Of a DNA stretch of 64,000 nt, positions 10,112 to 43,839 are shown piece after piece (position 1 is the first letter of the stretch; every line of letters begins with the position of its first letter). Under the pieces are notes generated by a model. That model worked only from the letters and a program-made list of their open reading frames with translations, was not told where the DNA came from and made no database searches. Source of the stretch: a virus. Location: the IMG/VR virus record IMGVR_UViG_3300037296_000046, positions 1-64,000 of that record; one strand, written 5' to 3'. The translations under genes and the position numbers were made by a program.

Positions 10112-10186
10112 GCGTAGTTGGTTACAGGTATATAACTTGTAGCCAACTTAACCGTACTCAGTGCCAACTGTATGGTTCCGCAAAGA

Positions 10187-10239
10187 AACCCAGTCAGCTA
10201 GTTACATTATGTGTAGCTAGTTGGCTGGGTTCTTTTTTT
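10187..10239 (+). terminator. Long-stem Rho-independent terminator
   Basis: 21-bp stem (with G-U pairs) AACCCAGTCAGCTAGTTACAT/GTGTAGCTAGTTGGCTGGGTT then CTTTTTTT. Confidence 0.8.
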
Positions 10240-10333
10240 ATGGGTAGCATCATCTAAATGCTATCTTTTGAAAAGATGTACTTTTTGACTAAGGATTACC
10301 TAAGTCTCAACCCTTGAAATGGAGGTTACTACA

Positions 10334-17669: not shown

Positions 17670-17707
17670 ATCCCTCACCGGTAACGGTGGGGGATATTTT
17701 TTTATTT
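17670..17707 (+). terminator. Rho-independent terminator
   Basis: ATCCCTCACCG-GTAA-CGGTGGGGGAT then T tract. Confidence 0.8.
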
Positions 17708-25151: not shown

Positions 25152-25185
25152 AAAAGAGGTGGGATAGTATCCTGCCTCTTTTTTT
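25152..25185 (+). terminator. Rho-independent terminator
   Basis: AAAAGAGGTGGGA-TAGTA-TCCTGCCTCTTTTTTT. Confidence 0.75.
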
Positions 25186-25206
25186 ATTTGAACTAAGGTA
25201 CACCCA

Positions 25207-30277: not shown

Positions 30278-30311
30278 AACCCCTTGGCTCTAGTAGCTAA
30301 GGGGTTTTTTT
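30278..30311 (+). terminator. Rho-independent terminator
   Basis: AACCCCTTGGCT-CTAGT-AGCTAAGGGGTTTTTTT. Confidence 0.8.
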
Positions 30312-30332
30312 ATTTGAAAAAGGAGTAGACCC

Positions 30333-34237: not shown

Positions 34238-34331
34238 TTAGATACCCCATTGCATATTCTGTGCGATGGGGTATTCAACAATTCCCAATTAGTGTTGGCA
34301 ATCATGTCTAACACAATTCAAGGAGAGAACC

Positions 34332-34685
34332 ATGAACGATGTCACTACTGCACCTGCTGCTTCGCCTGTCAGCCTGTCTGACCTGAAAGCTGCTCGTGAC
34401 AAACTGAACGCACGCATTGCTGAAGAAACCAAGACCAACCGCAAGAACACCGTTGCGGAAATCAAAGCTCTGGTCGAAGCCTACGACATCCCACAAGATG
34501 AACTGGTTGCTTCTGTTTTCGGCAAAGCTCGCAAAGCTAAGGGTACGGCTACCAAAGCTGAACCTAAGTATCAGAACCCTGCGGACACTGACCAGACATG
34601 GACCGGTAAGGGCCGTCAACCTGAGTGGTACAAGACTGCCATCGAAGGTGGTCAATCCCCAGAGACGATGCTGATTAGCAAGTAA
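34332..34685 (+). CDS. hns: H-NS family nucleoid-associated protein (HvrA-like)
   Basis: N-terminal coiled-coil oligomerisation region; C-terminal PKYQNP...QTWTGKGRQPEW signature; AAGGAG RBS. Confidence 0.92.
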   Translation: MNDVTTAPAASPVSLSDLKAARDKLNARIAEETKTNRKNTVAEIKALVEAYDIPQDELVASVFGKARKAKGTATKAEPKYQNPADTDQTWTGKGRQPEWYKTAIEGGQSPETMLISK

Positions 34686-34703: not shown

Positions 34704-34737
34704 AAGCCCTCTAGTATTCGTACTAGGGGGCTTTTTT
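34704..34737 (+). terminator. Rho-independent terminator
   Basis: AAGCCCTCTAGTA-TTCG-TACTAGGGGGCTTTTTT. Confidence 0.85.
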
Positions 34738-34981: not shown

Positions 34982-34996
34982 TTGATTGGAAAACAC

Positions 34997-36295
34997 ATGC
35001 CACTGAACTTAGGGCAGAAAAATGCCTCGACAGAGTGTCTCCAATTCCTACTGTCACCAGATAAAGAGTTTCGTATCGCTGGGCCAGCAGGAGTTGGTAA
35101 GACATTCATGTTGAAATACATCATGAATACATTGATCAAGCAGTACGAACAGACATGTAAACTTCTGGGCATCAAGCCTACTGAGTTTGACATTGCTCTT
35201 ACTGCTACGACCAACAAAGCTGCTGAGGTGCTTGCCACTTCTACAGGATACCCAACCCAAACGATCCATAGCTTTATGAATCTACGGGTATACGACGATT
35301 ACTCTAGCGGAGTATCGAAGTGCAATAAGACCCGTTCATGGCATGTCCATCGTGAGACTATCATCTTCATTGATGAAGCCTCTATGGTAGATGAGAACCT
35401 GTACAAGTTCCTCATGGAAGGTACTGATAAGACATGTAAAATCATCTACATCGGTGATCGTCACCAGTTGGCACCTGTCTTTGAGAAGGTGTCCAAGGTC
35501 TATGCTACTGATCATAACTTGGTCGAATTGACTGAGCCAGTACGCAATGCTGACCAGCCTGCGTTGATGAATCTGTGTGAGCAGTTCCGTGATACGGTTA
35601 AGACAGGGGTGTTTAAACCTATTGTCGAAGTTCCCGGAGTCATTGACTTCATTGATGATACCAAATTGGCTCAAATGTTGGATGTCACTCTGAAGCCTGA
35701 AGATGTGGATGCTCGTATCCTCATGTTCACCAATCAGCGTGTCCATGACTATAACGAATATCTTCGTGAAGTTCGTGGACATGGTAAGATGTTTGCCAAA
35801 GGTGAAATCTTGGTAAACAATGCCTCTGTGGAAATCAGTGACAAGATTCAATTGTCAGTAGAACAGCAATTCTTAGTGCTACAAGCTGACACTGATGTTC
35901 GTGAGATTGTAGTATGCCGTAACGATAGTTCTATCGTAATGGACATCTACAAGATGCGGATCACCCATGCTACAAATCCAAATGGTGAAGGCTTTGATGT
36001 CCGTATCCCATACGACATGGAACACTACAAAAAGCTGATGAACTATTTCAGCAACAACAAGATGTGGCCAGATTTCTACAACCTTAAAAACAACTTTCCT
36101 GATCTACGGATGAAGGATGCCTCGACTGTCTATAAGGCTCAAGGCTCCACCTATGAATTCGTGATCCTAGACCTAACTAACATCGGTCTATGTAAGGATG
36201 CTGAACAAACAGCACGGATGCTCTACGTTGGCGTTTCTCGTCCAACCACACGCATTTTCCTTTACGGCAAGCTACCCCCTAAGTACGCTGGCTGA
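34997..36295 (+). CDS. SF1 (Dda/RecD-like) DNA helicase
   Basis: GPAGVGKT, TIHSF, IDEASM, GD.HQLAPV, TVYKAQGST, LYVGVSR. Confidence 0.92.
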   Translation: MPLNLGQKNASTECLQFLLSPDKEFRIAGPAGVGKTFMLKYIMNTLIKQYEQTCKLLGIKPTEFDIALTATTNKAAEVLATSTGYPTQTIHSFMNLRVYDDYSSGVSKCNKTRSWHVHRETIIFIDEASMVDENLYKFLMEGTDKTCKIIYIGDRHQLAPVFEKVSKVYATDHNLVELTEPVRNADQPALMNLCEQFRDTVKTGVFKPIVEVPGVIDFIDDTKLAQMLDVTLKPEDVDARILMFTNQRVHDYNEYLREVRGHGKMFAKGEILVNNASVEISDKIQLSVEQQFLVLQADTDVREIVVCRNDSSIVMDIYKMRITHATNPNGEGFDVRIPYDMEHYKKLMNYFSNNKMWPDFYNLKNNFPDLRMKDASTVYKAQGSTYEFVILDLTNIGLCKDAEQTARMLYVGVSRPTTRIFLYGKLPPKYAG

Positions 36296-36303
36296 ACAAG
36301 TTT

Positions 36304-36377
36304 GGTTCTATAGCTCAATTGGATAGAGCTTCCGCCTCCTAAGCGGGTCTGTGTGGGTTCGAGTCCTACTAGAACCA
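36304..36377 (+). tRNA. tRNA-Arg(CCU)
   Basis: Acceptor GGTTCTA/TAGAACC, D-arm GCTC-AATTGGATA-GAGC, anticodon loop CT-CCT-AA, T-loop TTCGAGT; followed by CCG (no complete encoded CCA). Confidence 0.92.
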
Positions 36378-36379
36378 CC

Positions 36380-36580
36380 GGAGTACGCAGTGGACCTAAG
36401 TTGCCACTGTGTAAGGTCAGGAGCCACCCCCACGGGGCTTCCTGATTACACCCTGCTGTGACCCTTAGAAAAGGTTACAGCGTGGTGGGTAGAGCCTAGC
36501 TCAAGCCCACTGTAGGTGGCTGAGAAGCCGCAGAGAAGGATGAAAGACCTTCGCATCTAGGTGGAAACCCTAGAACCAAC
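36380..36580 (+). ncRNA. Putative structured non-coding RNA (seven tandem hairpins)
   Basis: GC-rich, ORF-free, almost fully base-paired; last three hairpins capped by TGAGAA, ATGAAAGA and TGGAAAC loops; ends ...ACCA. Confidence 0.55.
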
Positions 36581-36596
36581 TCATTAGGAGAGACAT

Positions 36597-37088
36597 ATGC
36601 GGACTTACATCGGCACTAAAATCATCAAAGCCAAACCCATGACACGGGCTGAATACAACACCTATCGTGGGTGGGATTTACCGGAGAATGAAAACGGCGA
36701 TGATGGTGGTTATCTCGTTGAGTACGAAGCAGCACCAAATGTTGAGACAAATCATGTCGATCATGCGGGCTATATTTCGTGGTCCCCAGATTCCGTATTT
36801 GAGGAATCTTATCGTGGTCCGGGAACCATGAACTTCGGCCATGCTTTAGAGATTCTAAAGTCTGGTGGACGCGTCAGCCGTCAAGGTTGGAACGGCAAGA
36901 ACATGTTTATCTTCTTGGTAAACGGTTCAACTTTCACCGTAAATCGTGAGCCACTGCTTTCGATCCTAGGTGAAGGAACAGAGGTCAATTACCACGGCCA
37001 TGTGGATATGAAGACCGCTGACGGCATGATCGTTCCATGGCTCTGCTCGCAAACTGATATGCTTGCAGAAGATTGGGGCATTGCCTGA
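36597..37088 (+). CDS. DUF2829/Tad2-family anti-defence sponge fused to an N-terminal YIGTK...SWSP domain
   Basis: C-half MNFGHAL..LK.G.RV.R.GWNGK.MFI...PW..SQTDMLAEDW (DUF2829); N-half YIGTKIIKA.PM...GYLVEY...YISWSP..VFE.SY; AGGAG RBS. Confidence 0.8.
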   Translation: MRTYIGTKIIKAKPMTRAEYNTYRGWDLPENENGDDGGYLVEYEAAPNVETNHVDHAGYISWSPDSVFEESYRGPGTMNFGHALEILKSGGRVSRQGWNGKNMFIFLVNGSTFTVNREPLLSILGEGTEVNYHGHVDMKTADGMIVPWLCSQTDMLAEDWGIA

Positions 37089-37126
37089 TCAATGGGGCAG
37101 CGTGTTTACACGTTGTCCCAACCTTT

Positions 37127-37206
37127 GTCGGTGTCACTGTAAGTGATGAGTGGGGTTTGATCACCCTTGATCAACTCAGCAGGTGGGAACCCTGCCACCG
37201 GCTCCA
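37127..37206 (+). ncRNA. Non-canonical tRNA-like RNA
   Basis: Acceptor GTCGGTG/CACCGGC, discriminator T, encoded CCA, T-arm GCAGG-TGGGAAC-CCTGC, D-like arm TCAC-TGTAA-GTGA. Confidence 0.65.
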
Positions 37207-37225
37207 TATTACAAATGAGGATGTT

Positions 37226-37723
37226 ATGAGACTTGATTATCTCAAGCTCATCCCCTCCCTGATCGCTTCGGTCATGGGACCGGAGAAAGCTCGTTTCAAA
37301 AAGCTACGCAGCAAATTAGTTGAGGATAACATGAAGTTAGGCGGTAACGTCCTTGGCTTCAGGCACCTTGGCTTGCGCTATAGCAACAACCATCCCCGCG
37401 ATACCAAAGGTGTTCACTTGCCTGCTGTGGAACCATCCTTTAAGGGTGAGGTCCAGCGATTCGAGGCTCTTGTCCTACGGGCAGAACGTGATGAGCAGCG
37501 TCTTCGCCAGTCTCTCACAGTTGTTCTACCGATGTGTGAAAGCCTACAAGACATCCGTGATGTTTTGCCAGAGGTATTCGTAACCGAAATTACACAGCTA
37601 AGCTCTCTCGTAAGAACCAGAGAGGCAGGCTACATACTGAGGGAGCATCCAGTGTTAAAGACCCAATACGATCAAGCTGTAGAGATTGCTCTATTCTACA
37701 CCGTCAATCGTCTGGTATTTTAA
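37226..37723 (+). CDS. N4 gp38-like hypothetical protein
   Basis: GAGG RBS, ATG 37226; C..LQDIRD.LPE...L.RTRE motif; coupled to DNA polymerase. Confidence 0.75.
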   Translation: MRLDYLKLIPSLIASVMGPEKARFKKLRSKLVEDNMKLGGNVLGFRHLGLRYSNNHPRDTKGVHLPAVEPSFKGEVQRFEALVLRAERDEQRLRQSLTVVLPMCESLQDIRDVLPEVFVTEITQLSSLVRTREAGYILREHPVLKTQYDQAVEIALFYTVNRLVF

Positions 37724-40359
37724 TGAAGTATCTGACCTTTGGTAAGACTGAGGCTACTCAGTACAAGATTGCGATCTTGGCATCATCCCTGAACACCGCA
37801 CAGTTCAATACCCACTACATTGAACCATACATGGAAGACTTTCGGGATGATGTAATTGCATACAGTCTTCACAAGTCAGGTAAGAAAACCTCTGTGGCAA
37901 CACAGAAGGAATACCTAGAAGACCTATTGCCTGTCCTCATGGACCTTGGTGTCAAATATCTAGTCGTCACAGATGGCGAGTACTTTAAGACACTCACAAA
38001 ATCCTCCACAATTGATGCTTCCATTGGCTACGTCATGGATTGCATCGTGGGGGATTTTAAAATCGTTTATGCTCCTAACTATGCTCAGGTCTTCTACGAT
38101 CCTGACAAAGTTAAAGTCAAAATGGAACGTGGTTTCTCTGCTCTCAAGGATCATATGGCTGGCACCTATGTCGATCCCGGAGATAGCATCATCCACTATG
38201 CTGATTATCCCAAGACACCTACTGAGATTAAAGCATGGCTGGACAAGCTCTTAGAGCTAAACCTACCCCTCACTGCTGACATCGAAGGCTTCTCCCTGAA
38301 GCACTATGATAGTGGCATTGGTTCCATTACATTCTGCTGGGGTAAGAATGAGGGTATCGCCTTCCCTATTGATATTCGTGAAGCCTATGGACCTCTGAAA
38401 CAGGGTCAAAAGCTAGAGCGATTTCATAACACAGAAGTGCGAGCACTTCTCAAGGATTTCTTTTTGAAATTCAAGAACAAACTGATCTGGCATAACATTT
38501 CCTTTGACGTATACATTCTGGTTTACCAGTTGTTTATGGATCACCTTCTGGACACCGAAGGTCTACTAGAGGGAATGGATGTACTTCTTAACAATTGGGA
38601 ATGTACTAAGCTAATCACCTACTTAGCTACGAATTCCTGTGCAGGAAACAAGCTGGGCCTCAAGTCTCAGTCACATGAATATGCAGGCAATTACGCAGTT
38701 GAAGACATCAAAGACATCACCAAGATACCCATTGATGAGTTGCTAGAATACAACTTGATCGACGGTCTATCCACATGGTTCACCTACGATAAGCACTACG
38801 ATACGATGATCGCTGACCAGCAAGAATCTATCTATGTGGACATCTTCAAGAAGTCGATCTTGGAGATTATCCAGATGCAGCTAACAGGCTTGCCTGTTGA
38901 TATGGCTCAGGTGATTAAGACATCTGACATTCTGGATGGTGAGAATAACATCGTCAAATCTAAGATGATGAATTCGATGGTCGTCCAAGGGTTCACTCCC
39001 TACCTTCGTCAGAAGTGGATGGACACCATGCACTCTAAGTGGAAGGTGAAACGGATCACATTGGCTGAGGTTCCTGTTCGTAAGGAAACCACCTTCAATC
39101 CCGGCAGTCCTGTACAGCTTCAGAAGCTCCTCTTTGATGAGGACTTTATGGGTCTACCTGTTCTTGAACTTACCGACTCCAAACAACCAGCTACAGGTGG
39201 TGATGTCTTAGAGAAGCTCAAGAACCATACGACCAACCCAGAATACCTAGCTTTTCTAGATTATCTGATTGAGTACAAGACCCTCGCAATCATCATCAGC
39301 ACCTTCATTCCAGCCCTCAAGAACGCCTCTCTGGCTCCTGATGGGTGGCACTACATGTTTGGCAGCTTCAACCTAGGAGGCACGCTCTCAGCCCGTCTGA
39401 GCAGCAGTAATCCTAACCTGCAAAACATTCCTGCCTCTGGTGCAACCAAGGCTAAGCAACGCTTGGCCAAGATGATCAAGAAGTGCATCAAAGCCCCTCC
39501 GGGCTGGCTTTTCGTGGGTTTAGATTTCTCGTCACTGGAAGACAGAATATCTGCCGTTACAACCCGTGATCCAATGAAGCTGAAGGTCTACACCGATGGC
39601 TTCGATGGTCACTGTCTTCGGGCATATGCTTACTTCAGTGATCAGATGCCTGACATCATTGGGGATAGTGTCAAATCTATCAACTCTATTTCCAAGATGT
39701 ATAAGCACCTTCGTCAGATCAGCAAGGCTCCAACTTTTGCCCTGACATACCAAGGCACCTATCACACGCTCATGGCTAACTGTGGGTTCAGTGAGGAACT
39801 GGCTAAGGCAATCGAGGCTAGTTACCACAAGCTGTACGTTGTCTCTGACGAGTGGGTGGCTGACAAGCTGAAGCAGGCAAGCAAAGACGGTTATATCACG
39901 GCAGCATTTGGTCTGCGTGTTCGTACCCCCTTGCTCAAGCAGGTGATTCTTGGCACCAAGTCCACTCCGTTCGAGGCAGCAGCCGAGGGACGGACAGCAG
40001 GTAACGCTCTGGGGCAGTCATGGGGTTTGCTCAACAACCGAGCAGCTTCAGAGTTTATGGCTAAGGTCCGTAAGAGCAAATACCGTCTGACAATACGTCC
40101 CTGTGCTCATATCCATGATGCTCAGTATTATATCATCAAGGATGATCTAGAGCATGTAGAATGGATGAATACTCATCTCGTAAAAGCAGTCCAATGGCAG
40201 GAGCATCCTGACATTGCTAACGATGATGTGAAATTGGGTGGAGAACTTTCGATCTTCTATCCAGACTGGTCAGTAGAATTGGAAATTCCCAATGGTGCAG
40301 ATCAGAATAAAATATCTGAAATGGCTGAACAGCATTACTTAGAGAAATGCGCAGCTTAA
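37723..40359 (+). CDS. Family A DNA polymerase (N4 gp39-like)
   Basis: Exo DIEG, HNISFD, YNLID; RLSSSNPNLQNIP; motif A DFSSLEDR; motif B R..SKAPTFALTYQG; motif C IHDA. Confidence 0.95.
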   Translation: MKYLTFGKTEATQYKIAILASSLNTAQFNTHYIEPYMEDFRDDVIAYSLHKSGKKTSVATQKEYLEDLLPVLMDLGVKYLVVTDGEYFKTLTKSSTIDASIGYVMDCIVGDFKIVYAPNYAQVFYDPDKVKVKMERGFSALKDHMAGTYVDPGDSIIHYADYPKTPTEIKAWLDKLLELNLPLTADIEGFSLKHYDSGIGSITFCWGKNEGIAFPIDIREAYGPLKQGQKLERFHNTEVRALLKDFFLKFKNKLIWHNISFDVYILVYQLFMDHLLDTEGLLEGMDVLLNNWECTKLITYLATNSCAGNKLGLKSQSHEYAGNYAVEDIKDITKIPIDELLEYNLIDGLSTWFTYDKHYDTMIADQQESIYVDIFKKSILEIIQMQLTGLPVDMAQVIKTSDILDGENNIVKSKMMNSMVVQGFTPYLRQKWMDTMHSKWKVKRITLAEVPVRKETTFNPGSPVQLQKLLFDEDFMGLPVLELTDSKQPATGGDVLEKLKNHTTNPEYLAFLDYLIEYKTLAIIISTFIPALKNASLAPDGWHYMFGSFNLGGTLSARLSSSNPNLQNIPASGATKAKQRLAKMIKKCIKAPPGWLFVGLDFSSLEDRISAVTTRDPMKLKVYTDGFDGHCLRAYAYFSDQMPDIIGDSVKSINSISKMYKHLRQISKAPTFALTYQGTYHTLMANCGFSEELAKAIEASYHKLYVVSDEWVADKLKQASKDGYITAAFGLRVRTPLLKQVILGTKSTPFEAAAEGRTAGNALGQSWGLLNNRAASEFMAKVRKSKYRLTIRPCAHIHDAQYYIIKDDLEHVEWMNTHLVKAVQWQEHPDIANDDVKLGGELSIFYPDWSVELEIPNGADQNKISEMAEQHYLEKCAA

Positions 40360-40715: not shown

Positions 40716-41708
40716 ATGAAAGCCACCATCAAGAATCAAAATGGTATGAGCCTAGCTGCCGCTGTGTGGTTGGCTCATGACACCTACGACAATGGGGCTA
40801 GTGCAGCACCGGAACAGGATACTATTTCGGTCACTACCCTGTTGAAGCCTACTCGTGCTTTCATTCTGGCACAGCAGGTTGATCCAAACGATGAGAGCCA
40901 AATGCTCGATGTCACGGACATGATCCCTTCACGTCTAGGCCATGCTATCCACGATTCCATTGAGGATGCTTGGCGTAATGGGTATCGGAATTCTATGGCT
41001 AAACTGGGGTATCCTCAGAAAGCTATTGATGCTGTCCGTATCAATCCTGAAACAGATGATGGGACTATCTTTCCTGTCTATCTGGAACAACGGTTCTTCC
41101 GTGAGATTGATGGGGTAATCATCTCAGGTAAGTTTGACCAAATTATCAATGGTGATCTGGTCGATACCAAATCCACTTCGGTTTGGGCTTACATGAATGG
41201 TTCTAAACTTGAGGATTATATCCTTCAGTTGTCCATCTATCGTTGGATCAATCCTGATAAGGTCACATCTGATGTTGCCTATATTCAGCACGTCTTTACT
41301 GATTGGCAACGGAATCAAGTTGGAACCAATCCCAACTATCCCAAGTATCGTGTGACTGAAATCAAAGTCGAATTGATGACCATTGGTCAGACAGAGCGTT
41401 GGATTCGTACCAAGCTGGCTGACATCCGTAAGAATGGTCCACTCAAGCAAGAGTTCATGGTTCGTTGTACTGACAAAGAGCTTTGGAAATCTGAACCTCA
41501 ATACAAATACTATGCTGATCCTGCAAAGGCTGAGCTTGGGGGTCGATCCACCAAGAACTTTGATAGTTTTCATGCCGCCGATAAGCACCGAAAGGATGCG
41601 GGCAAAGGTGTTGTTGTAACCAAGCCCGGAGAAGTCAAAGCATGTCCATATTGCAAAGCCTTCTCTGTGTGTGAACAGAAAGATGAGTATTTCGATGTCG
41701 CTGCCTGA
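40716..41708 (+). CDS. PD-(D/E)xK exonuclease (N4 gp42-like)
   Basis: ISVTTLLKP, G.AIH..IE, EQR, SGKFD...D.KST, Q.SIY, C-terminal CPYC.....C. Confidence 0.85.
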   Translation: MKATIKNQNGMSLAAAVWLAHDTYDNGASAAPEQDTISVTTLLKPTRAFILAQQVDPNDESQMLDVTDMIPSRLGHAIHDSIEDAWRNGYRNSMAKLGYPQKAIDAVRINPETDDGTIFPVYLEQRFFREIDGVIISGKFDQIINGDLVDTKSTSVWAYMNGSKLEDYILQLSIYRWINPDKVTSDVAYIQHVFTDWQRNQVGTNPNYPKYRVTEIKVELMTIGQTERWIRTKLADIRKNGPLKQEFMVRCTDKELWKSEPQYKYYADPAKAELGGRSTKNFDSFHAADKHRKDAGKGVVVTKPGEVKACPYCKAFSVCEQKDEYFDVAA

Positions 41709-43839
41709 TCTAGAAACGATTGACCATCACCCTGCGATTGAGGAAATCGTGGACGTGATGTGCAACAAGACCCAGAACACTGATCGGGGTTTCTTCCGTG
41801 TAGAGGTGGCCTATTTTCTTGCGAAGATGGCCGCTTCTATGCGTTCTGAGATTCTGACTAAGGATCGGGGCAACATCCCTGTGAACGTCTATGCTCTTGC
41901 CATGGCTACATCTGGCTTTGGTAAGGGTCACAGTGTTCACATCATGGAAGAACAATTCATGAAGGGTTTCAAACGCCGTTTCATGGAGGATACATTTCCA
42001 ACTATTGCTGACACTCATCTGTGGAAGCTGGCATTTCAACGTGCTGGCACAAACGGTACTGAGGAGCAGGAAGAACGGGATAAGCTAGAGAAAGAGTTTA
42101 TCCAAGCTGGTGCATTGCCCTTCACTTTTGATAGTGGCACTGGTCCTGCCGTGAAGCAGCTTCGTCAGAAGTTGATGCTGGCAGACTGTGGGGCTGTGAA
42201 CCTACAGATTGACGAGATTGGCTCTAACCTTGTCGGTAACGTCGAGGTTCTGACCATGTTCTTGGAGCTATACGATCAAGGCTTGGTCAAACAGAAGCTC
42301 GTCAAGAACACCCATGACAACCAACGTGGGCAAGAGATGGATGGTAAGACACCAACCAACGCATTGCTCTTTGGCACCCCTTCTAAGCTCTTGGATGGGG
42401 GTCAGACTGAAGACCAGTTCTACTCCTTCCTTGAGACAGGCTACGCTCGTCGTTGTCTCTTTGGGTGGGGTGAGCATATCCCCTCTGAAATCGAACTGAC
42501 ACCCAAGGAGGTCTACGAACGCCTGATTGACACAGGTAACGTGACCACTGTGGACCGTTGGTCAGATCACTTCGCTTTACTTGCTGACAGCACCAAATTT
42601 GGCTGGCAGATGAGTGTGAGCGATGAGGTAGGTGTTGCTCTCATCACCTATAAAATCCAGTGTGAGAAGCTGGCTGCCACCTACGCAGAGCATGAGGACA
42701 TTCGTAAAGCTGAGATGTCACACCGATATTTCAAATGCCTTAAACTAGCAGGTGCGTTTGCCTTCGTGGATCAATCATCTGACATTACGCTAGACCATCT
42801 CTACTCGTCCATGAAACTGGTCGAGGAGTCTGGCATAAGTTTCCAGCGATTGCTGACACGGGAAAAGACCTACGTTAAATTGGCTAAGTTTATCGCATCC
42901 TCTACGGATGAATTGACCCATGCTGATCTACACGAAGCTCTGCCTTTCTATAAGTCCAGTCAATCTGCTCGTAATGAGATGATGACCATGGCTACTGCAT
43001 GGGGCTACAAACAGCATATCGTCATCAAGAAGACATTCTTGGATGGTATCGAATTCTTCACAGGGGAAACCCTTGAGGAAACTAATCTGGATGAGATGCT
43101 TATCAGTTACTCTGATAACTTCGCGTTCAACTATTCATTCGAGCGTCAGCCAATGAGTAGTATGCACCTATTGACCCAATCCGTTGGGAACCATTGGTGT
43201 AATCACGGTTTCTCTAACAACCACCGTTCCGAGGAAAATGTAGTTCCCGGCTTTAACATAGTGGTTATTGACTGTGATGGTGGTGTCCAATTGTCGTTGG
43301 TCCATGAGCTTCTCAAAGAGTATGAGTTCATGACATACACCACTAAGAGCCATACTGAGGCAGAGAATCGGTTCCGACTGATGATCCCTATTAGCTATGT
43401 CCTTGAGTTGGATCGTGATGACTATAAAGAATTCATGAACAACATTATGGATTGGCTACCATTTCCTTCTGATGAAGCCGCTAACCAGCGATCTAAGAAA
43501 TGGGAAACCTATTCAGGTGGCAAATACTCCGTGAACCATGGTGAGCTACTCGACCCTTTGAAGTTTGTACCAAAGACCTCAAAGAACGAGCAGCACCGTA
43601 CATCCATGACCAAGCTGGAAAGCCTAGACAACTTCGAGCGTTGGTTCGCATCACGGATTGCTAACGGCAACCGTAACAACCAGATGATCAAGTTTGCATT
43701 AGCCCTTGTAGATCAAGGACTTAACTACAACGATGTCGAGAGTTGTGTCGTCAGTTTCAACAATAAGTTGGCCGATGGGCTGACTGAGACTGAGCTACGG
43801 AGCACCATCCTACAGACTGTTGCCAAGAAGTTTAGCTAG
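41695..43839 (+). CDS. Primase-like replication protein (N4 gp43-like)
   Basis: SGFGKG P-loop, IDEIG, D.DGG and YTTKSH primase motifs, C-terminal GNRNN PriCT-like domain. Confidence 0.85.
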   Translation: MSLPDLETIDHHPAIEEIVDVMCNKTQNTDRGFFRVEVAYFLAKMAASMRSEILTKDRGNIPVNVYALAMATSGFGKGHSVHIMEEQFMKGFKRRFMEDTFPTIADTHLWKLAFQRAGTNGTEEQEERDKLEKEFIQAGALPFTFDSGTGPAVKQLRQKLMLADCGAVNLQIDEIGSNLVGNVEVLTMFLELYDQGLVKQKLVKNTHDNQRGQEMDGKTPTNALLFGTPSKLLDGGQTEDQFYSFLETGYARRCLFGWGEHIPSEIELTPKEVYERLIDTGNVTTVDRWSDHFALLADSTKFGWQMSVSDEVGVALITYKIQCEKLAATYAEHEDIRKAEMSHRYFKCLKLAGAFAFVDQSSDITLDHLYSSMKLVEESGISFQRLLTREKTYVKLAKFIASSTDELTHADLHEALPFYKSSQSARNEMMTMATAWGYKQHIVIKKTFLDGIEFFTGETLEETNLDEMLISYSDNFAFNYSFERQPMSSMHLLTQSVGNHWCNHGFSNNHRSEENVVPGFNIVVIDCDGGVQLSLVHELLKEYEFMTYTTKSHTEAENRFRLMIPISYVLELDRDDYKEFMNNIMDWLPFPSDEAANQRSKKWETYSGGKYSVNHGELLDPLKFVPKTSKNEQHRTSMTKLESLDNFERWFASRIANGNRNNQMIKFALALVDQGLNYNDVESCVVSFNNKLADGLTETELRSTILQTVAKKFS

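Follow-up and report, generated by a model that had tools for sequence, protein, structure and literature searches.

GOLLD and ROOL are large RNAs that are often found beside phage and prophage tRNA genes, and RNAC and RNAD of phage T4 are discrete RNAs of ~120 to 140 nt made from tRNA precursor transcripts. In Escherichia coli, the 3' external transcribed spacer of the glyW-cysT-leuZ transcript is a functional tRNA-trailer RNA of ~50 nt that binds Hfq and ends in a terminator. The N4-type phages, for their part, use DNA hairpins with 3-nt loops as early promoters in their early region. It has been reported that the tRNA region of T4 yields two small RNAs of unknown role (PMC3014915; PMC9697503) and that RNase P also acts on substrates other than tRNA, among them phage RNAs and mRNAs (PMC11143913). 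The locus described here belongs to an uncultured, N4-like phage known from a metagenome and carries an array of seven hairpins between a tRNA-Arg gene and a Tad2-like (anti-Thoeris) gene. Its source is an IMG/VR virus record of 75,869 bp with direct terminal repeats; the window, meaning the whole stretch of DNA analyzed as one piece, is the first 64 kb (64,000 nt) of that record.

The locus runs in a single direction on the plus strand, in the order helicase, tRNA-Arg, array, Tad2-like gene, second non-coding stretch, a gene of ~165 amino acids, and polymerase (Table 1). The Dda-like helicase shares 44 to 47% identity with its counterparts in Schitoviridae (N4-like) phages infecting Agrobacterium, Sinorhizobium, Rhizobium, Pseudomonas, and Erwinia, and the nearest helicases among 5.8 billion proteins, which come from Logan assemblies, are 58 to 60% identical. 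Since the best of these matches is only 60% identical, the phage is without a close relative among those sequenced. The ~165-amino-acid gene and the polymerase stand directly after the helicase, with nothing between, in Zuri, OLIVR1, and Ea9-2, and the distance from helicase to polymerase is ~500 to 620 nt in most of 78 N4-like loci from IMG/VR, compared with 1428 nt here. The longer spacing and the direct adjacency in those three phages point to an accessory island of ~930 bp. Judged by this comparison, the island, which consists of the tRNA, the array, the Tad2-like gene, a hairpin, and a tRNA-like element, is an insertion between the helicase and the polymerase module. The junction of the helicase and the ~165-amino-acid gene is an insertion hot spot, with several N4-like loci carrying unrelated extra small ORFs (L097, L149, L161, L168, and L173).

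The tRNA is the only one of this phage, and its codon, AGG, accounts for 4.9% of the arginine codons (52 of 1069, from crude ORF calls over the whole genome), so it serves a rare codon. Because the gene ends in ACC-G, its CCA end is incompletely encoded. In the Tad2-like protein, the N-terminal ~75 residues find separate matches elsewhere at 50 to 64% identity (viral loci L065-L071 and L076-L079) and, from these matches, look like an independent domain.

Table 1. Features of the helicase-to-polymerase interval, in window coordinates. Hairpins of the array are numbered H1 to H7; stems and loops are as predicted.
Feature	Position	Strand	Evidence or measure
Dda-like helicase	34982-36295	+	Pfam AAA_30, AAA_19, UvrD_C_2
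tRNA-Arg, anticodon CCT	36304-36379	+	ARAGORN; Rfam RF00005, 62 bits
H1: 10 bp including one G.U, 10-nt loop	36384-36413	+	pair probability 0.87-1.00
H2: 13 bp, two bulges, two basal G.U pairs	36415-36447	+	pair probability 0.89-0.99
H3: 10 bp, 9-nt loop	36454-36482	+	predicted fold
H4: 7 + 4 bp around an internal loop	36484-36511	+	predicted fold
H5: 6 bp, GAGA tetraloop closed by U-A (alternatively read UGAGAA)	36516-36531	+	p 0.55, least certain
H6: 5-bp stem, loop AUGAAAGA including GAAA	36533-36554	+	predicted fold
H7: 6 bp, 7-nt T-loop-format loop UGGAAAC closed by G-C	36556-36574	+	predicted fold
ACCA after H7	36575-36578	+	
CTAGAACCA, exact direct repeat of the tRNA 3' acceptor end (36369-36377)	36570-36578	+	repeat search
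Shine-Dalgarno AGGAG, 6 nt before the ATG of the Tad2-like gene	36586-36590	+	unpaired or weakly paired
Tad2-like (anti-Thoeris) gene, 163 aa	36597-37088	+	PF11195, E 2.8e-25, residues 78-162 (C-terminal)
12-bp hairpin with weak U-run, just 3' of the Tad2-like stop codon	37093-37120	+	
tRNA-like second element: 7-bp acceptor stem, T-arm loop UGGGAAC, U-CCA	37127-37206	+	MFE -31.1 kcal/mol
Conserved N4-type gene, ~165 aa	37226-37723	+	
Family A DNA polymerase	37723-40359	+	Pfam

By its computed folding, the array is a real sense-strand RNA structure and the strongest-folded stretch of this genome in raw energy. The plus strand of 36380-36597 folds to -90.5 kcal/mol (z -5.35), and none of 200 dinucleotide-shuffled controls is equally stable, a test that the dense pairing noticed in a preliminary description of this DNA withstands. 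The minus strand reaches a z-score of -2.55. Of the 62 pairs in the structure, 8 are G.U, and since these become C.A mismatches on the opposite strand, the asymmetry between the strands points to an RNA of the plus strand. The seven hairpins of that description, with ACCA behind them, are all present in both the MFE and the centroid folds. When folded in a context of 345 nt, every hairpin except H5 has a pair probability of 0.82 to 1.0, and the positional entropy of the array is below that of the flanking tRNA and coding sequence. Its longest linker is 6 nt, about two-thirds of its 5' 200 nt is base-paired, and its GC content of 0.54 (0.56 in H1-H4) is above that of the genome (0.46) and that of the Tad2-like gene (0.48). 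As had been noted before, the region is free of coding sequence, and no ORF of at least 60 amino acids overlaps it.

The array's rank among the folded regions of the genome depends on the measure. In 200-nt windows along the 75.9 kb, it has the lowest raw folding energy of all; after GC correction, it is the third locus, behind a putative terminator cluster at ~10.1 kb and a window near 41.8 kb, and several other intergenic regions have z-scores equal to or better than its own. Most of the other strongly folded intergenic regions examined consist of a long perfect stem followed by a U-run, the pattern of an intrinsic terminator. The scan of 36296-36596 found no U-tract, terminator-like site, or sigma-70-like promoter site in the array, and the T-rich motif that recurs after the terminators of this phage is likewise absent from it. 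Thus, the array should be read through. The nearest terminator upstream of the island lies at 34704-34733 and the next only beyond the island. The earlier proposal of co-transcription with the tRNA is therefore the simplest reading, as there is no promoter-like or terminator-like site between the two.

Some features elsewhere in the genome deserve a record of their own. The gap of 195 nt between convergent genes at 10112-10306 has the strongest z-score of the genome (-9.9 on the plus strand); besides a hairpin of 14 bp and other stems, it has a perfect one of 20 bp with a U-run behind it, and it is probably a terminator cluster, as far as the predicted folds can tell. The windows at 41761 and 41801 (41761-42000), inside the ORF at 41671-43839, rank second after GC correction, with a residual z of about -3.8. 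A T-run followed by an ATTTGAA-like sequence stands right after the terminators in at least three intergenic regions (17695-17707, 25179-25190, and 30305-30316) and may be a phage-specific promoter or restart motif. A gene for an H-NS-like protein at 34332-34685 (PF00816, E 2e-14) has a 16-bp hairpin ahead of it (34241-34275) and a strong terminator behind it (34704-34733).

The hairpins had been described as tandem T-loop-like elements, and this description survives for one of them. H7 has a 7-nt loop of the form U..RA.. closed by a G-C pair, but none of the other hairpins qualifies, and H5 to H7 can be read equally well as GNRA tetraloops (GAGA, GAAA, and GAAA) with an extra 5' U or a mismatch. 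A pseudoknot between ACCU and AGGU, also suggested at first, has to be given up as sterically implausible in the modeled structure: it would need a zero-length loop across a 10-bp stem, and its 3' strand belongs to the base of H2. A 5-bp loop-loop contact between CUUAG in the loop of H3 and CUAAG in that of H1 is possible on paper.

It is important to consider which known classes of RNA the array could have belonged to. ARAGORN finds no tRNA in 36380-36596 at default or 80% thresholds; its relaxed matches, which might have indicated an array of tRNA pseudogenes, are noise, and the matches to tmRNA are just implausible low-threshold ones on the minus strand. No covariance model of GOLLD, ROOL, or another Rfam phage RNA matches at E <= 10. 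The same holds for a T-box leader, which would also leave the missing terminator-like site and an at most weakly paired ribosome-binding site unaccounted for. An intrinsic terminator is excluded in the same way, with none found in 36296-36596 and no U-tract. Tandem Repeats Finder reports nothing at a minimum score of 30, against a ToxI-like or other tandem-repeat RNA, and a repeat search found no hairpin-sized family of direct repeats in the array (ToxI-like repeats are about 34 to 40 nt). The longest helix, in H2, has 13 bulged pairs and the others have 5 to 11, short of the ~20 or more continuous base pairs of an RNase III stalk. By inspection, GGA lies wholly in a loop only in H7 and spans the stem-loop junction in H1 and H6, which does not fit a sponge of the CsrB/RsmZ type. 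On the basis of these comparisons, the array belongs to no described RNA family.

The search for relatives was equally negative. Rfam cmscan matched the real tRNA (36304-36377) alone, both at the gathering score and when 36100-37400 was searched with permissive filters at E <= 10. Among 50,697 phage records and 72,556 plasmids, blastn returned matches to the tRNA only or none, and its distant mode likewise gave none for the array in the phage records. A covariance model built from the array's single sequence and structure found isolated hairpin noise only in 255 loci and 50 whole viral records (24 with a completeness of 90% or more). The loci used as anchors were of three kinds, with 80 of each: viral loci with a Tad2 homologue, metagenome loci with one, and N4-like loci with the helicase; the array is absent from the 160 Tad2-homologue loci and from 78 N4-like loci. 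In the 80 metagenome Tad2 loci, which reach 72% identity, DNA similarity starts at the start codon or within ~11 nt of it, and the 80 viral ones have chance-level matches only to the array. In the four closest full-length homologues with readable gene calls (65 to 72% identical), the Tad2 gene lies 7 nt behind the upstream ORF. Scanning viral contigs for a 17-mer of H7 gave 12 matches, the level of chance, which have nothing else in common with the array. Pattern scans of IMG/VR for the 3' half of the tRNA and for the two motifs described below gave no matches, and the sole match to the 5' half in genome contigs is a tRNA-Arg(TCG) of a spirochaete and is unrelated. In L108 and L111, two N4-like phages that also have a tRNA-Arg close to the helicase, a gene comes directly after the tRNA, so the array is not a general habit of N4-like phages. 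Within the reach of these searches, the array appears to be known from this phage lineage only.

A separate observation concerns a 73-kb viral contig in which a Tad2 homologue (61% identical) is followed by a strongly folded gap of 175 nt (L006:3498-3673). This gap folds to -72.5 kcal/mol for 191 nt and has no sequence similarity to the elements of the island.

Within the phage itself, the array does share sequence with one other region. Exact copies of GGTGGRAACCC occur just twice in the 64 kb, at 36560 and 37182, which bears out an earlier remark on the likeness of the last loop to that of the element at 37127. Both copies form the loop and stem of the last hairpin in the non-coding regions that flank the Tad2-like gene, and they lie 22 and 30 nt upstream of the next start codons, those of two consecutive genes. 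The H7 motif AGGTGGRAACCCT is common to 37181-37193 in the second element. A second motif, CACTGTARGTG, lies 51 and 46 nt upstream of GGTGGRAACCC in the two regions, and the local alignment of the array's 3' part with the second element is better than that of shuffled sequences (p about 0.01 to 0.02). The cloverleaf-like fold of the second element is its MFE fold (region 37089-37225, z -3.2); it escapes both ARAGORN at default settings and the Rfam tRNA model. In relaxed or mitochondrial mode, ARAGORN draws 36511-36582 as a cloverleaf whose acceptor stem has 5 of its 7 pairs and whose anticodon loop has 8 nt; this fold is 7.7 kcal/mol less stable than three separate hairpins. From these shared motifs, the 3' third of the array is a probable diverged copy of the tRNA-like module. 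On the contrary, the similarity of H1-H4 to tRNA is at chance level (p 0.5), and they have no detectable relation to the second element either.

The proposal that the array is an undescribed non-coding RNA can be kept in part. What is supported is a real structure that favors the sense strand and has no match among the Rfam families at E <= 10; nothing, however, shows a discrete RNA rather than a leader, and the ribosome-binding site of the Tad2-like gene begins 8 nt after the last hairpin. Our preferred explanation, which we put forward tentatively and with appreciable doubt, is that the array is a processing and stability leader in a tRNA-punctuated transcript, where it would serve tRNA-Arg(CCU) as a 3' trailer and the Tad2-like mRNA as a 5' leader. 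The island would be transcribed through as part of the helicase-polymerase operon, and the tRNA would be excised by RNase P and the 3' tRNA-maturation enzymes. The downstream RNA would then begin with a compact array containing almost no single-stranded A/U-rich sequence. Such a beginning could protect the Tad2-like mRNA against attack requiring a free 5' end, block exonucleases, and prevent adjacent sequence from pairing wrongly with the tRNA or the ribosome-binding site. The shared T-arm-like hairpin motif and the tRNA-like element would serve as further punctuation, with the tRNA and the tRNA-like fold giving RNase P a site on either side of the coding unit, and the array or its H1-H4 part may also build up as a stable by-product RNA.

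Several observations are consistent with a leader of this kind. Folding is strong and specific to one strand, with its complement of G.U pairs and high pair probabilities in context. The array occupies the entire gap between the tRNA and the Shine-Dalgarno sequence, from 4 nt past the encoded CC of the tRNA, which ends at 36379, to 8 nt before the Shine-Dalgarno (the tRNA is a good one by its score and, as had been recognized earlier, lies directly ahead of the array). The spacing of the island compared with N4-like relatives and the motif shared by the regions on both sides of the Tad2-like gene also fit. On the other hand, no homologue was found in anything searched, and hence there is no covariation. 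A single 5' hairpin suffices to slow RNase E, so that seven hairpins over 200 nt exceed the need. The H7 region is, on paper, a poor substrate for RNase P, given its incomplete acceptor stem and the energy penalty of the cloverleaf. Not one of the 160 Tad2-homologue loci has such a leader, and with the closest of these genes set so tightly behind an ORF, Tad2 can in general be expressed without one. It is because a shorter element would do, and because Tad2 genes elsewhere manage without one, that we keep this explanation short of a probable one.

The same folding energy, strand bias, and GC enrichment would be expected if the array, or H1-H4, were cut out and acted alone in trans as a free-standing non-coding RNA, for example, by serving as a sponge or decoy that engages an RNA-binding factor of the host or an RNA-sensing or tRNA-targeting defense, alongside the Tad2-like sponge protein. 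The array lies between a processing-competent tRNA on its 5' side and a possible tRNA-like domain at its 3' end, adjoins a counter-defense gene, and is larger than a leader needs to be, and RNAC and RNAD of T4 show that phage tRNA regions can give small RNAs. However, it has no terminator, no promoter of its own, and no closing helix; no phage searched carries a homologue, and no target or partner can be named. We consider a trans-acting RNA unlikely on this balance.

The sequence repeats raise another question, namely, whether the region is evolutionary debris, that is, a recombination scar together with decayed tRNA-like duplicates left by the assembly of the island and rich in hairpins by virtue of a tRNA-type origin. 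The 9-nt sequence CTAGAACCA stands at both the tRNA 3' end and the array end, where it is also complementary to the 5' acceptor strand of tRNA-Arg, and it may be a recombination scar. As regards a possible transposon or MITE insertion, its two copies bracket a unit of 201 bp, with no terminal inverted repeats visible at 36378 or 36569. The 3' third resembles the second element through the collinear CACTGTARGTG and AGGTGGRAACCCT, similarly spaced, and relaxed ARAGORN takes part of it for a degraded cloverleaf; the whole is an orphan region at an insertion hot spot of N4-like phages. Nevertheless, repeats of 9 nt are common locally, and with four exact ones in 1.1 kb, this repeat is weak evidence for a scar. 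Decay should also have eroded the stems, whereas here they reach 10 to 13 bp with few mismatches in the most stable fold of the genome, the GC content is above that of the flanking genes, and H1-H4 are no closer to tRNA than chance. We consider debris unlikely as well.

Two further possibilities have less in their favor. The first is a cis-regulatory leader that would switch the translation of the Tad2-like gene as a riboswitch-like element, a thermosensor, or a protein-binding operator. The position directly upstream of the ribosome-binding site would suit such a role, H5 is only half-populated in the ensemble, and an alternative long-range pairing exists between 36422-36440 and 36503-36521, which are 79% complementary. 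The ribosome-binding site, however, is barely paired in the predicted folds, where it has a stem of 3 bp (MFE) or no stem at all (centroid); a terminator and antiterminator pair is missing, no Rfam riboswitch or T-box matches at E <= 10, and nothing is conserved upstream of the 160 Tad2 homologues. A switch of this kind is accordingly improbable. The second is that the array represents a new class of stable, tRNA-linked phage non-coding RNA and makes up an RNA-plus-protein counter-defense module with the Tad2-like sponge and with the tRNA and tRNA-like RNA on its flanks; its GNRA or T-loop hairpins might, for instance, be decoys that divert a nuclease or sensor of the host directed at tRNA or at structured phage RNA. 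We give this idea only a slim chance. Least credible of all is an element acting as DNA, be it a replication origin, a recombination site, or a set of N4-type hairpin promoters, since, even though such promoters are known and a crossover could have its core in the 9-nt direct repeat, the other strand folds much more weakly, with its C.A mismatches in place of G.U pairs, the loops of 4 to 10 nt and the site inside the replication operon are unlike the N4 early promoters, and inspection of the sequence found no inverted terminal repeats around the 201-bp unit.

Should the array prove functional, it would add to the unannotated RNA elements that phages pack around their tRNA genes, here tied to an anti-defense gene, and an accessory gene would have entered an essential operon with its own RNA punctuation and protection. 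The evidence is one sequence and its thermodynamics, and the array is accordingly a candidate RNA rather than an established RNA class.

Set beside the systems described at the outset, the array resembles each in part. The initial comparison with GOLLD and ROOL is apt as regards the position beside a tRNA gene and does not extend to the architecture: the array is several times shorter, matches neither at E <= 10, and is a row of short hairpins, each independent of the others, that neither a closing helix nor a multi-branch core holds together. Like the E. coli glyW-cysT-leuZ spacer, an RNA sponge of small RNAs, it would come from a tRNA trailer; unlike that spacer, it is 200 nt long and GC-rich and has no U-tail or known pairing partner. 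The likeness to RNAC and RNAD of T4 is one of description, as non-coding RNAs beside phage tRNA genes, but the array is known from its sequence alone and runs straight into a ribosome-binding site. Finally, there are the systems in which tRNAs or tRNA-like signals punctuate a transcript, namely, mitochondrial tRNA punctuation, the t-elements of plant mitochondria, and mascRNA. In contrast to these, the seven-hairpin array is not itself tRNA-like and punctuation alone does not explain it, and processing is here a proposal; as in these systems, a tRNA and a tRNA-like fold flank a coding unit.
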